Assembly (NCBI GenBank): GCA_039815185.1
Contig: JBCBZT010000087.1
Coordinates: 1-21,969 of the forward strand
DNA: 21,969 nt
Direction of reading: 5' to 3'
From: Cyanobacteria bacterium P01_A01_bin.123
GTDB lineage: Bacteria; Cyanobacteriota; Cyanobacteriia; Phormidesmidales; Phormidesmidaceae
The translations under genes and the position numbers were made by a program. Below the pieces are notes generated by a model that worked only from the letters and a program-made list of their open reading frames with translations, had not been told where the DNA came from and ran no database searches. Each line of letters starts with the position of its first letter. Position 1 is the first letter of the stretch. Below are positions 8,892 to 21,171 of the stretch, piece after piece.

Positions 8892-8934
8892 AGCTGGTGA
8901 CAAGACTCGAACTTGCGGTCGGCTGATTACAAAT
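8892..8934 (-). tRNA. Orphan 3' half of tRNA-Thr(TGT), att-like remnant
   Basis: Minus strand ATTTGTAATCAGCCGACCGCAAGTTCGAGTCTTGTCACCAGCT: anticodon loop TGT, T-arm GTTCGA, acceptor 3' strand. No adjacent 5' half. Confidence 0.8.
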
Positions 8935-9015
8935 GGCTTCTGATTACAAATAGCTTCAACGAATTCAAAAGCCTGTTTGTGAAAGACTTTCAGGGCTAAT
9001 TCAGAATAATGACAA

Positions 9016-9066
9016 GGCGATCGCGTCCATCATCCATGGTTGGTTGGGTTGATGGATGCGATCGCC
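9016..9066. repeat. Module B copy 1: HIP1-bounded hairpin
   Basis: Arms GGCGATCGCGTCCATCA / TGATGGATGCGATCGCC (17 bp, one mismatch). Related copies at 16741-16790 and 17658-17710. Confidence 0.85.
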
Positions 9067-9169
9067 CTAGGGCAGGCCTTTGACCATCACGTTTGAATTC
9101 AGAATCATAATCTGTAGTTGTACTTCTGCGATCGCGGCTGGTGATTGTAAGCGGATCGCTTGTACGGAT

Positions 9170-11134
9170 TCACAGGTTACATATCTCCGCTTTCTGGAAG
9201 GCGGTGGCGGCAATTACCCGCCCAAAATTCCAGCTCCAGCCCACAGTATAAGGTCCACCCCATCGCGGAAAGTAGCCGTTCGGAGCCGTGCTCAGGTCAA
9301 AGGCGGATTTTCTGTAGTAAATCTGCCTCCCACGGAGTCCCCAGCCTACGGCATCACCAAACTTGTCCAGATCTGCATCTTCCACATCTAGGTTTGTCAG
9401 ACCCAAATCCAACCAAATCTTCTTCTGCACTGAAAAGCCAAACTTGCCGCCACTTGCTGCCACCCAGAGCCGGTCTAATGTCCGTAAGTCCTCACAGGGA
9501 AGCTGTTTGATGGCTTCCGCGTTAATCGAACCCTCAACGGTTCGACACACATCCTTAATCAGTCGTGCGGTTGCTTGGTCTGCGCTGTACCATTCCTGCT
9601 GTTGCAACAGTTCTCGCAGTTCCTGGTAGTCTGCGCCTCTCTCGGACTCTAGCGGTACGGCATCCAGTCGCAGGGCATCTGGTGGTGCGGCATACAGGGG
9701 TAGGACGGGTTCGCGCTGGCTTACCATTCTTTGTTGTTCCTGCTCCCACAAATAGTATGCCGCCTCAATGTCAGGATCGACATAGCATCTGTAGCTATCT
9801 ATATGGCCCGCTACTGCGTCCATCAATCTAGGTGCGGAATCAAGAAGAACATTCATGCCGCCCGATTCTCGCATGCCATAGCCTGTACCCCAGTCCCATA
9901 TGTCCTCAGAATACTCCACTAAGCGTTCATAGACGGTTTCATTAGGGTAATAAGCGGTGATATAGGTGTCGCAATACTCGCCCGTTTGAAGAACAAAGCC
10001 CTCACCTGTTTTGAGAACCACGCTCAAGGGAGGAAGCTCGCCCTCAATCGTGCGTTCGTGATACTGATGGGAGATTTCCTCCCATGCCGTCGGCAGCGAA
10101 TATCCATTGGGTTCAAGCTGGCTCTGGCTGTATTTCTGCATCATCTGCAGTGCAGCTTCAGCTTGCTTAAGCGTCAAATTTTCATCACTTTGCAACCGTC
10201 GAGCTAAGTAATGACCGAACCGCGAATCACTCCCATTGAAACCAATATCGTCCTGCGAGCGAGCGTCACCGCTTCCTGCTAAAGATAGAATTGCATTCTC
10301 TAAACGGCGATCGTAATTTTGTTCAAGACGCGCAATACTCTCCTCAAATCGCCCTGCCATTTCTGCCTTAAGGGCAAGCAATTCATCAATGGTTGAGGAA
10401 GTTGCAGAGCTAGAGAACGATGCAGCAATTTGCCCTGGGCCGATCCCTGCCTTTTGCTCCTCCTGCCACAAATAGTAGACTGCCTCAATGTCAGGATCGA
10501 CATAACCGGCGTAGCCATCTTCTATACGTCTCGCTGCTGCTGCTAGCACTTCTTCTGTCACCTGGAGGACAAAGCCTTCCCAGTCGCCGCCTTCATACCA
10601 CGTTTCATCTTCAGAAAAGTCTTCCCCGAAATAACCGTCACCAGGAAAATAAACGGCAATATATGTGCCGTGTTCCTCTTTCCTTTTGAGAACCATACGC
10701 AATCCAGGAGGATCGCCCTCAATCTTACTTTCGCGATACTGATGGGAGATTTCCTCCCATGCCATCGGCAGCGAATATCCATTGGGTTCCAGCTGGGTCT
10801 GGCTGTATTTCTGCATCATCTGGAGTGCAGCGTGAGCTTGTTTAACCGTCAACATTGCTCCACTTTGCAACTGCCTGGCTAACGAATGGCCAAACCGCGA
10901 ATCGCTCTCATTAAAGCCAATACTGTCCTGCAAGTTTTCACCATCACCGCTTCCTGCCAAAAATAGAATTGCCTCTTCTAAACGACGATCGTAATTTTGT
11001 TCAATACGCGCAATAATCTCCTCAATTCGCCCTGTCATTTCTTCTTTAAGGGCAAGCAATTCATCAATGCTTTCTCTCCCTGAGGAGGAGTCGATTTTGT
11101 TGGTTTGGTTTTGTTTGTTTTCGTTGTTCATCAT
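9170..11134 (-). CDS. Chimeric protein: two copies of an uncharacterised N-terminal module plus C-terminal GUN4-like domain
   Basis: Internal repeat IDELLALK...GFN.SDSRFGH.LA..LQS...LT.KQA.AALQMMQKYSQ.QL twice. C-terminal SERGADY..L..LL...W..AD, PCEDLRTLDRLWV.AS.GKFGFSVQK.IW is GUN4-like. Confidence 0.85.
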   Translation of the reverse strand: MMNNENKQNQTNKIDSSSGRESIDELLALKEEMTGRIEEIIARIEQNYDRRLEEAILFLAGSGDGENLQDSIGFNESDSRFGHSLARQLQSGAMLTVKQAHAALQMMQKYSQTQLEPNGYSLPMAWEEISHQYRESKIEGDPPGLRMVLKRKEEHGTYIAVYFPGDGYFGEDFSEDETWYEGGDWEGFVLQVTEEVLAAAARRIEDGYAGYVDPDIEAVYYLWQEEQKAGIGPGQIAASFSSSATSSTIDELLALKAEMAGRFEESIARLEQNYDRRLENAILSLAGSGDARSQDDIGFNGSDSRFGHYLARRLQSDENLTLKQAEAALQMMQKYSQSQLEPNGYSLPTAWEEISHQYHERTIEGELPPLSVVLKTGEGFVLQTGEYCDTYITAYYPNETVYERLVEYSEDIWDWGTGYGMRESGGMNVLLDSAPRLMDAVAGHIDSYRCYVDPDIEAAYYLWEQEQQRMVSQREPVLPLYAAPPDALRLDAVPLESERGADYQELRELLQQQEWYSADQATARLIKDVCRTVEGSINAEAIKQLPCEDLRTLDRLWVAASGGKFGFSVQKKIWLDLGLTNLDVEDADLDKFGDAVGWGLRGRQIYYRKSAFDLSTAPNGYFPRWGGPYTVGWSWNFGRVIAATAFQKAEICNL

Positions 11135-20790: not shown

Positions 20791-20976
20791 GGGGGTAAGC
20801 CTTTGGATGTGGTCTCTTGCCTTGTTGAGTCCACTATGGTCAAAAGCCTTGGCAGAAAAAATTCTGAACCTGCAACCTTTTGCACTTTAAAAGTTCAGTT
20901 TTATTCAGGTATTGGCTTGACGAAAAGTTCAGTTTTATTCAGGTGTTGGCTTGATGAACAGCTTCAGTCACCAAGA
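20777..20976 (-). promoter_or_regulatory. Module A copy 3, contiguous with the DUF4157 start codon
   Basis: Aligns with copy 1 through the ATG. Contains a 34-bp tandem duplication (20889-20922 / 20923-20956). Confidence 0.65.
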
Positions 20977-21028
20977 TTGCGTGAGGGGAGTCGCAATTCT
21001 GGAAGGCTGAGAAGGAGTCGGGGGATAA

Positions 21029-21129
21029 GGAGAAGGGAAGAGCAAGCCCTCATCCCCCAGCCCCTTCTCCTCGGGGAGAAGGGAAGAGCAAGCCCTCATC
21101 CCCCAGCCCCTTCTCCCCGAGGAGAAGGG
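21029..21129. repeat. Tandem REP-like palindromes (46-bp period)
   Basis: GGAGAAGGGAAGAGCAAGCCCTCATCCCCCAGCCCCTTCTCC twice; hairpins CCCTTCTCC-N4-GGAGAAGGG. Confidence 0.9.
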
Positions 21130-21171
21130 GGGCCTGATTTGTGAAGCCTTGTAGATGGGTAGACTCCTCTT

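Follow-up and report, generated by a model that had tools for sequence, protein, structure and literature searches.

Cargo proteins with a DUF4157 domain have been described from Anabaena (Alr3311/Alr3312; PMC8894136), from AlgoCIS (Cgo1/Cgo2; 10.64898/2026.05.27.728243) and as EATs (PMC8213781, PMC11297309). Gene 5 of the locus analysed here follows the architecture given in the available parts of these sources, with an N-terminal region, a DUF4157 HExxH motif and a variable C-terminal domain. As in the described systems, the genome holds eCIS loci, and as reported for Moorena in the available part of its description, it holds many DUF4157 copies. Unlike DUF4157 cargo at eCIS loci, gene 5 lies away from these loci. 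The available parts of this literature describe no common 3′ flank, no movement of a gene together with its flank and no reuse of the upstream region before non-cargo genes, and the papers found give no answer to how eCIS cargo is diversified and controlled in cyanobacteria. The underlying processes, namely island accretion, homologous exchange of toxin tips and promoter capture, are already known.

The window is the whole stretch of 21,969 nucleotides from Cyanobacteria bacterium P01_A01_bin.123 (GCA_039815185.1, contig JBCBZT010000087.1, 1-21,969, forward strand). Five ORFs, all on the minus strand (genes 1-5 at 9170-11134, 11905-14874, 15089-16381, 16753-17292 and 17869-20790), bear out the five co-oriented cargo genes of a preliminary description, and copies of the repeats that it had lettered A, E, C, B and D were located between them. 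Seven of the 15 spacer pairs have local scores (40-207) above the maximum of 100 Markov-resampled controls (≤28); none of the 15 exceeds the controls in inverted orientation, and all of the repeats are direct. The preliminary description had derived all spacers from one scaffold. This does not hold, since the remaining eight pairs score at chance level, no module occurs in every spacer and the modules have separate origins; the spacer repeats are at least five unrelated modules. Its 'C tail' module is a 9-nt match, too short to count, and the 'start of A' that it saw in spacer 2 belongs natively to E and is found at the same place in the donor genome G014. A repeat search of the genome showed that the modules are not generic genome-wide repeats. 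A broken ORF lies at about 8430-8865. Beyond gene 5, REP palindromes (21029-21130) and a DUF559 gene (Pfam) occupy 21029-21606 on the plus strand, followed by an IS4-type transposase to the contig end; the DUF559 gene is skipped by low-depth contigs of runs X2 and X4 and is mostly deleted in G181:C202.

Genes 1-4 are shared with distant marine cyanobacteria: their identity to genes from other genera, and from Okeania, is 84-92%, compared with 65-76% for core genes. The identity to G014 is 87.5% for 9258-10390 of gene 1, 87% for gene 3 (430 aa, TPR repeats and DUF4870 by Pfam; 89% to locus L022) and 86% for gene 4 (179 aa, one hydrophobic segment), which stands on the opposite strand there. No Pfam or NCBIfam family fits gene 4, which in G014 and G181:C7 stands without a toxin gene. 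Of the composition differences proposed earlier, those in GC content are modest (0.48-0.55 versus 0.52 for 1-8300), though genes 1, 2, 4 and 5 contain no HIP1 site against 9.4 expected. Spacers contain eight HIP1 sites against 2.9 expected, partly through copies of the hairpin H described below. As a crossover site, HIP1 gave no significant result: it lies within 12 nt of 4 of 17 breakpoints versus 10% of spacer positions, and at least two of these four are edges of H, which itself holds HIP1.

Genes 1 and 2 are paralogues (64% identical over the N-domain) and gene 3 has the same leader E, which corrects the earlier view that the genes are mostly unrelated. Gene 1 (654 aa) encodes a leader, two copies of an uncharacterised N-domain and a GUN4-like domain (Pfam). 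Gene 2 (989 aa) encodes a leader, the N-domain, a linker, an FGE-sulfatase domain of C-type-lectin fold, two beta repeats and an OAA lectin (Pfam, NCBIfam). Both belong to a small family that shuffles its domains at a linker of 90 nt. In 28 homologues, this linker stands ahead of FGE in 7 of 7 cases, of the beta repeat in 11 of 11 and of OAA in 4 of 6. The N-domain has no Pfam or NCBIfam family and one weak PHROG match, its Atlas scores (0.80-0.81) are at chance level, Foldseek comparison of its model (pLDDT 59) with PDB and BFVD gave nothing at E≤0.001, and a metagenome scan gave no match. Weak structural rows of this model point to an SNF2-type helicase and phage proteins and may serve as a lead. 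A DGR acting on genes 1 and 2 was rejected: the assembly nowhere contains a template for either the FGE tip or the GUN4 tip.

The paralogy bears on an alternative already raised in the preliminary description, in which successive tandem duplications within the locus, then deletion and divergence, built the array without foreign exchange through the modules. Both genes contain internal duplications, the 432-nt beta repeat of gene 2 is single in X2 and X3, and contig C28 carries a 77% copy of a spacer block (F-H-F-pstB, see below), all as duplication would predict. However, the genes here are closer to their counterparts in other genera (85-92%) than the local N-domain copies are to one another (79-85%). 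Gene 2 is 87% identical to L022, which its 5′ part matches, and its 3′ part matches Okeania L020 (92%); leader E was already duplicated in the donors. Duplication and deletion are part of the story; alone they leave foreign genes with donor-derived leaders unexplained, and we regard this alternative as quite unlikely.

Module E occurs at 11095-11135, 14838-14930 and 16397-16489. The long form continues into the donor upstream flank (to about 15010), followed by module C (14838-15076, minus strand), and 14890-15010 is 87% identical to the upstream region of gene 3 in G014. Long E precedes gene 3 in G014 and gene 2 in L022; here both genes have it in front. On these comparisons, E is the leader that genes 1-3 have in the donors themselves. 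Module C occurs at 11471-11513 and 15034-15076, and CCCGACTAA occurs at 11431 and 14957. On the plus strand, 11431-11746 consists of a shortened copy of the E-flank/C junction, C, a tRNA-Phe 3′ half (11525-11569) and a flank in common with the tRNA-Phe island of contig C112 (11527-11738 is 93% identical to C112:22417-22628). On contig C100, C likewise runs on into a tRNA-Phe relic. At the other end of gene 1, a tRNA-Thr(TGT) 3′ half (8891-8934) with an element arm of about 77 nt (8891-9011, minus strand) reads as an attachment-site relic. The half is 95% identical to an intact tRNA on C45, which adjoins an integrase-like ORF, and the tRNA-Thr island of G014 has a distal att end 80% identical to 8890-9011. 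Searched against 173 genomes, spacer 1 matched through its tRNA half only, among the matches listed outside G000 and G181. By their sequence, C with its tRNA-Phe half, and the tRNA-Thr half, are attachment-site relics. The tRNA-Thr arm and a MITE end at 11181-11202 had both been overlooked in the preliminary description. Integrase-dependent events happened here at some time, as the two tRNA halves record.

Could tRNA-targeting integrative elements be the main builder, with integration and imprecise excision at tRNA-Thr and tRNA-Phe leaving the repeats as debris? Both tRNA halves, with their island flanks, fit this, as does the island-growth model in the available part of 10.1101/2020.12.28.424599. 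In addition, G181:C202 joins C5:23790-29847 (98%) to window positions 21226-20868, and the last part of C5 is the other end of the IS4-type element; therefore the array probably continues, across a gap, into C5, which has genes in common with the tRNA-Thr island of G014. Other traits of such elements are dispersed: the halves lie in the window, an integrase and an intact tRNA elsewhere in the assembly (C45, C94/C112). As noted earlier, no recombinase is visible: the window has no integrase ORF, and ARAGORN and Rfam found no intact tRNA in it, only sub-threshold hairpin matches. Moreover, none of A, E, F, H and the linker is an att site, an X3 contig joins the host flank (8381) to a copy of F without a tRNA half, and the join to C5 spans a gap. 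We consider these elements rather unlikely as the main builder; they account for arrival better than for shuffling and are compatible with growth of the array by recombination between modules.

The modules formerly called D and B (F and H here) are, by sequence, the 3′ flank of the MxYQR-DUF4157 family. Hairpin H, a HIP1-bounded palindrome, occurs at about 9015-9111, 16713-16806 and 17637-17720. The first copy, with the start of an F-type flank, occupies 9015-9127 (RNA fold z -7.2 for 9010-9070); the second (16713-16806) forms the last codons and stop of gene 4, and donor homology ends at 16806. Elsewhere in the genome, H lies 3′ of DUF4157 genes and beside Uma2 genes (C9, C28, C39, C108, C113). 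The F-H-F block (17500-17866, formerly D-B-D) contains F at 17500-17641 and 17725-17866. Of 11 F matches, ten fall no more than 1.5 kb 3′ of an eCIS_core gene and share one orientation, and F is absent from 17 of the 25 eCIS_core matches with a closed 3′ end. Beside the block lies the pstB 3′ piece of the preliminary description, located at 17359-17495 on the minus strand and 72% identical to the end of the host pstB on C76. The piece recurs on C28 together with a 38-nt piece of gene 4.

Module A is the upstream region of the eCIS-type cargo gene, reused before genes 1 and 3 and before a beta-helix gene on contig C68. Its copies lie at 11245-11400, 16482-16647 and 20824-20979, with the fourth on C68. 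Copy 1 (11203-11400, minus strand; 90-93% identical to the other copies) retains the relic start (MVYQR, 11203-11216) of a DUF4157 gene. Copy 2 is joined to leader E (16397-16647, minus strand) across the 7-nt microhomology TTGAGTC at 16483-16489, a joint bridged by a contig of run X1 with no differences. Copy 3, before gene 5 (20791-20979, minus strand), has a 34-nt internal duplication. We predict that A is the promoter of the expanded MxYQR-DUF4157 (eCIS cargo) family of this genome. A profile search returned 18 weaker sites with the same motif, five of them before MxYQR genes and one before the LuxR-regulator/Pvc16/AAA genes of the eCIS locus on C9. The 21-nt core has nine sites, against none in each of eight shuffles, and the box is carried by 9 of 29 CCTGA repeat pairs (of 20 shuffled boxes, one reached 7 and another 4). 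A generic sigma-70 scan called no promoter in A, F and A fold no better than shuffles, and no excess of terminators was found; a promoter pattern scan of 121 genomes was uninformative, since it missed the genome's own sites too. Profiles of A, F and H over ten donor loci gave one A-type motif (L022), one weak F match (L021) and no match for H.

The preliminary description gave the captured genes and the eCIS-type effector gene a common leader, and this is true of genes 1 and 3, which stand behind A; A does not lie directly before genes 2 and 4. From this arrangement it is likely that foreign genes captured the predicted eCIS-regulon promoter. At gene 1, the relic start is fused to the MITE-like end (11181-11202) of a ~100-nt repeat, with longer copies on C43, C87, C121, C122 and C131. 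The same A-relic-MITE fusion precedes the beta-helix gene on C68, and the gene 1 and C68 sequences diverge at the MITE terminus, which would suit a transposase-mobilised portable promoter made of A and the MITE end. We think this very unlikely, given that there is a single MITE end and none at copies 2 and 3, that the upstream ends of the four A copies fall at four different places, that the C68 terminus reads GAGACC, not TAGACC, and that no target duplication was seen.

Gene 5 (973 aa) has a MAYQRKK N-terminus, eCIS_core (DUF4157; PF13699 at 168-236, E 5e-12, with the HExxH motif GHEATH at 225), a low-complexity linker and a C-terminal domain predicted to be a papain-like toxin domain (C627/H728/Q744). 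In the C-terminal alignment, Cys is present in 11 of 12 rows and His and Gln are invariant. Atlas feature matches to Gln_amidase clusters score 0.89-0.91, with the family on 21-45% of their members. A single-sequence model of this region (pLDDT 34) was discarded as unusable. Compared with 11 paralogous stretches, DNA homology ends at 19939-19977 and the C-termini are mostly unrelated. The genome has four sheath matches (C9, C15, C96), and Pvc16_N and AAA on C9; its MxYQR-DUF4157 genes, constant in the N-terminus and varied in the C-terminus, are expanded at the species level. Behind gene 5 there is no immunity gene or orphan toxin tip; the next gene (gene 4) follows 576 nt on, past the pstB relic. 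Gene 1 lies between A with its relic start and H, exactly as a cargo gene does. The eCIS cargo frame, with A ahead and F/H behind, might be a recombinase-free capture platform, which foreign, domain-shuffled lectin-type genes would enter, thereby coming under the eCIS regulon; through the MNNENKQNQTNK leader that they have in common, their products would be loaded into the injector as DUF4157-less cargo or would act as its targeting or immunity partners. We consider this unlikely; all five other carrier genomes tested have eCIS markers, which lends it little weight because 107 of the 173 genomes of the family have them as well.

A direct repeat flanks each of genes 2, 3 and 4, a different one in each case (scores 61, 116 and 40; of 1761 genome genes, 1.1% score at least 40 and 0.3% at least 60), and genes 1 and 5 lack such repeats (25 and 16). 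The homologues in G014, L019, L020 and L022 are not so flanked; such repeats occur only at two related Okeania loci (L018, L021), where neighbouring genes also score high. The site-specific, integron-like system proposed in the preliminary description did not survive comparison. A heuristic scan of the six spacers gave no end-paired attC site, and the one candidate, in spacer 4, fails terminal pairing; a looser scan gave four candidates elsewhere, three of them classic-looking. In place of a fixed crossover and promoterless cassettes, we found varying A ends, differing junction types and genes with their own upstream regions. An integron or CALIN was rejected on these grounds and on the lack of an adjacent intI. 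An array served in trans would draw on the full-length IntI of C36 (476 bits, cut-off 265), the only one in the genome, with remnants on C5 (120 nt, about 6 kb from the contig end), C14, C24 and C39, and on attC-like sites on C8, C19 and C70; an IntI 5′ piece also adjoins the A-led gene on C68. Against the same spacers and variable breakpoints, it is highly improbable.

Gene order and content vary from genus to genus and among conspecific samples, the joints lying inside modules, in agreement with the earlier view of a recombination-driven locus variable among relatives; the array is not invariant. The order is gene 3, another gene and a gene-1/2 hybrid in G014, and gene 2 then gene 3 in L022. 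Contigs join 15010 to 11136 and 12357 to 12790 (X2, X3), 16429 to 14891 with a 10-nt deletion at 16381 and 8381 to 17499 (X3), and 11131 to 14891 and 12802 to 14168 (X4); runs X1-X4 all belong to a single study, with X1 perhaps the source sample itself, and short joints (26-39 nt to a side) may stem from other loci or other species. Contigs of the near-conspecific G181, a mixed MAG, place a cargo gene with F at another flank and a different gene end with F at the C9 flank; the gene end in L056 (108 aa) may or may not carry DUF4157. Repeat misassembly might be suspected in a fragmented genome with 5.99% contamination. However, contigs of X1 span the joints att/H, H/gene 1, flank/gene 2, E/A and gene 4/pstB/F/gene 5 without a single difference, E/C/gene 3 and gene 1/MITE/A are covered by contigs of X2 and X4, and the repeat copies differ from one another by 5-23%; misassembly is scarcely credible.

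We favour, with some reservation, a strain-variable island grown by homologous and microhomology recombination, in which foreign genes captured a predicted eCIS-regulon promoter. The genome has three eCIS loci and expanded MxYQR-DUF4157 genes, 8 of 28 eCIS_core matches having the common 3′ flank F. Lateral transfer would have brought genes 1-4, for which the identities are observed and the direction is presumed, genes 1-3 with leader E and gene-2-type genes with their internal 90-nt linker. Single crossover or unequal crossing-over in whatever short homology was available (E, C, H, A, the linker) would then have duplicated the target; to judge from the junctions, the array likely grew by such recombination between modules. 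Microhomology deletions may have trimmed the copies, joining A to gene 3 at TTGAGTC and to gene 1 through the MITE end. Host general recombination, presumably RecA-dependent, would act on the modules and still be rearranging the array. Finally, genes 1, 3-2 and 5-4 are predicted to be transcribed from A together with the eCIS loader and cargo genes.

The locus records, base by base, how a multicellular cyanobacterium that has no dedicated cassette recombinase may build variable arrays and wire foreign genes to an existing regulon. Its testable parts are the predicted promoter motif common to eCIS loader and cargo genes, flank F, by way of which cargo genes seem to move between loci, and a small family of proteins, spread across cyanobacterial orders, that exchanges its ligand-binding domains at a fixed linker. 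As far as the available parts of the sources describe them, integrons and CALINs (PMC4889954) likewise have co-oriented cargo genes in variable order with repeats between them, but the array here has several kinds of repeat and lacks attC, an adjacent intI, a single Pc/attI and a fixed crossover. Tycheposons, tRNA-seeded islands (10.1101/2020.12.28.424599, as available), are similar in their partial tRNAs and in foreign genes at the island's distal end; unlike them, the window has no element hallmark genes and the shuffling joints are not att sites. The cyanobacterial FGS/GUN4 conflict-system proteins (PMC7159879, available part) also fuse a constant N-terminal domain to FGS, GUN4 and other ligand-binding modules, whereas here the N-domain is outside Pfam and NCBIfam, no MoxR-vWA genes lie beside it, there is no DGR template and further domains follow FGS in gene 2. 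Lastly, unlike the polymorphic toxins Rhs, CdiA and MafB as presented in the available part of PMC4436062, gene 5 has neither immunity gene nor orphan tips, its neighbours are full genes of other kinds and homology also extends 3′ of it; like them, it combines a constant N-terminus with an exchangeable C-terminus, with homologous recombination as the probable diversifier.

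The source genome is an 8.1 Mb cyanobacterial assembly of 133 contigs, one of which (C71) is the window in full. Ordinary host genes occupy positions 1–8300, including an lgt-like gene and what we take to be mreBCD and ssb. The array follows, with five genes on the minus strand (genes 1–5: 9170–11134, 11905–14874, 15089–16381, 16753–17292 and 17869–20790), and beyond it lie a DUF559 gene and an IS4-type transposase represented by its 5' end; the labels MITE, REP, IS4 ends and PEP-CTERM are our own assumed assignments. A 22-nt tandem duplication lies upstream of mreB (4532–4576), hexamer and trimer runs (DKDKDK, NNNN) lie at the end of gene 5 (17881–17930), and a contig from sequencing run X2 carries about 580 extra bases between 8702 and 8773, within a broken ORF (8430–8865). 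We compared the spacers of the array pairwise. Seven of the 15 pairs outscore all 100 resampled controls, in direct orientation in every case, so the repeats reported in the preliminary description exist; the remaining eight score at chance level, and thus the single reused scaffold proposed there gives way to a network of modules. A, C and E keep the names given in that description, whereas its B is called hairpin H here and its D flank F. These are not generic repeats, as genome-wide BLASTN places them on about a dozen contigs. Contigs from run X1 span most array junctions with zero differences, and X2 and X4 contigs span two further junctions.

Module A is the region upstream of gene 5, an eCIS-type gene with an eCIS_core (DUF4157) domain, and its proposed reuse holds, with copies also before genes 1 and 3. 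Four copies are 90–95% alike, three in the window and one on contig C68 ahead of a beta-helix gene. A profile search of the genome gives 24 matches: five are accounted for by these copies, 18 weaker sites combine CCTGAA repeats with a GGATTTTTTCTGC-like box and a hexamer resembling (C/G)ATAGT, and one is chance-like. Among the 18, five lie upstream of MxYQR genes and one upstream of LuxR-type regulator, Pvc16 and AAA genes in the eCIS locus of contig C9. The 21-nt core of A occurs at nine genomic sites versus none in eight shuffles; a second, weaker test gives 9/29, with 0–7 for shuffled boxes. Read from sequence, A may be a promoter; we infer such activity, together with co-regulation and eCIS loading, and a sigma-70 scan called no promoter in A. 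The genome holds 28 eCIS_core matches, sheath genes at three loci, and 17 M(V/A)YQRK-type starts plus two relics of such starts. Two of the copies of A, that before gene 1 and that on C68, are joined, together with the first codons of a cargo gene, to a single end of a MITE-like repeat. Upstream of gene 3, A is joined to module E across TTGAGTC, which is present in both parents, and the upstream ends of the four copies fall at four different places. The CCTGAA-repeat/GGATTTTTTCTGC/(C/G)ATAGT motif stands ahead of about 20 genes of this genome, eCIS accessory and cargo genes, kinases and HTH-receiver proteins among them (C9:13.8–19.1 kb, C9:52349–52456, C15:58897, C47:45614, C51:3729, C61:16510, C113:249297, C118:89728); they form a candidate undescribed regulon. 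Related CCTGAC repeats occur in another genome, G014 (L016:764, 4133), and at homologous locus L022 (about 9294–9385). C9:60385 and 65581 mark an eCIS-locus protein of 2428 aa that has two eCIS_core domains; it includes a 309-aa stretch identical in a comparison whose two query ORFs overlap.

Flank F has 11 matches, five of which built its profile. Ten are co-oriented and sit no more than 1.5 kb beyond the 3' end of an eCIS_core gene, in zones that make up 0.5% of the genome, and the eleventh lies 325 nt from a contig end; F is present at only eight of the 28 eCIS_core matches. Hairpin H is found alongside F and also beside Uma2 genes. Uma2 genes between H copies adjoin DUF4157 genes at C9:4191–5745, C39:183573–184683 and C112:23433–24208. 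On contig C28, F-H-F-pstB recurs at 77% identity, together with a 38-nt remnant of gene 4. Gene 1 is bounded by A with a relic start and by H, which is the position of a cargo gene.

Sequence identities record the origins and lateral sharing of the cargo genes. Genes 1–4 are 84–88% identical to G014, versus 76% for mreB, and genes 1 and 2 reach 85–92% in their best segments with Okeania and related loci, versus 65–76% for core genes. Both carry an N-domain, for which sequence and structure searches gave no identification. It belongs to a small family (17 and 22 hits; five loci), with named members in Okeania, Symploca, Roseofilum and Leptolyngbyaceae. The family (P0002–P0035, L018–L022, L016:5142–7343) belongs to marine filamentous cyanobacteria and crosses orders at 85–92% DNA identity, and its linker-bounded modules are FGE, GUN4, beta-repeat, OAA, propeller-like and fascin-like. 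The 28 N-domain sequences compared give 21 block strings, some of which are fragments or differ only in OAA matching. The 30-aa linker lies upstream of the beta repeat in 11/11 cases, OAA in 4/6 and FGE in 7/7, the last count being partly built in because the linker includes the FGE start. At two related loci, direct repeats of local host DNA flank the N-domain gene (L018:9093–9228 and 11291–11409; L021:8866–9225 and 12085–12445), which parallels the window. Conserved Cys, His and Gln residues mark the C-terminus of gene 5 and its 11 relatives, of which three likewise follow an eCIS_core domain; Atlas results give leads towards amidases of the papain fold, and a papain-like toxin is predicted.

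Module E is a leader native to the donors. At L022, E stands ahead of a gene-2 homologue, and a short form of it is read in frame with gene 3 (MNHENKQ...); G014 has a long E before gene 3 and a short one before a gene-1/2 hybrid. Module C continues into a tRNA-Phe 3' half, in the window and on contig C100; the 212 nt starting at the window's half are 93% identical to the tRNA-Phe island of C112, and 8890–9011 matches the far end of a tRNA-Thr island in G014. Many tRNA-Phe 3' halves spaced by small genes form a tandem att array at tRNA-Phe, ending beside another DUF4157 gene (C112:1–43 and 17577–23287, C94:203088–203160, C70:59547–59593; C453 and C551 of genome G181), and a 16-tRNA-gene array lies at a contig end (C96:89969–91837). 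The array probably makes up the distal portion of an island that extends further, through a presumed join to contig C5, because a G181 contig joins C5 sequence to the array's right end and C5 terminates in the other end of the IS4-type element. G181 is a MAG placed in another genus; its relevant contigs (C202, C185, C238, C346, C355) are 93–99.6% identical to the source genome and are likely co-binned sister-strain DNA. In this mixed MAG, a cargo gene with F appears to lie at another flank and a different gene end with F at the C9 flank.

Variation within the species shows in contigs from three other samples of one study, whose long pieces diverge by 1–5%. Among the joints listed here, with at least 15 more present, X2 and X3 have A-relic-MITE followed by a long E (15010 to 11136). 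The beta repeat is single in both. X3 has gene 3 with a G014-type upstream region and a 10-nt deletion at 16381 like that of L022, and an F copy joined to the host flank. In X4, short joints connect gene 1 with a long E, and others correspond to FGE loss. The window's left junction is also present in X2, at a depth of 16.6 versus 54–72 for host and 61 for gene 1.

Direct repeats around a gene are the trace left by single-crossover addition or unequal crossing-over. Each of genes 2–4 lies between copies of a different direct repeat, an arrangement rare in this genome and absent at genes 1 and 5 and at most donor loci. Breakpoints fall at scattered positions, with microhomology used at one or more. 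The integron-like origin suggested earlier finds no support under the definitions in the accessible part of PMC4889954. A full integron integrase lies at C36:697–1662 with no nearby attC, with several remnants elsewhere, and three single, classic-looking attC sites lie at C8 near 45.4 kb, C19:48873 and C70:65988. HIP1, a short repeat site, is linked to recombination in the available text of PMC4390886 and 10.1101/2024.09.10.611283, and shows no clear enrichment at array breakpoints. Because the integron reading is unsupported, genes 2–4 are repeat-flanked and breakpoints are scattered, with microhomology, we favour general recombination: tRNA-targeting elements would seed the island, host general recombination would act on several short homologies inside it, and foreign genes would capture A. 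That this recombination depends on RecA, and the order of the events, are likewise presumed.

From the accessible portions of the respective papers, DUF4157 cargo (PMC8894136, PMC8213781, PMC11297309, 10.64898/2026.05.27.728243), polymorphic toxin exchange (PMC4436062) and tRNA-seeded islands (10.1101/2020.12.28.424599) are known. Our literature search, with most subscription papers outside it, found no description of the A-type promoter motif, the shared 3' flank F or the N-domain family. Finally, the domains appended to the N-domain are mostly ligand-binding, and in this they resemble conflict-system proteins, whose appended domains are likewise mostly ligand-binding in the available part of PMC7159879.
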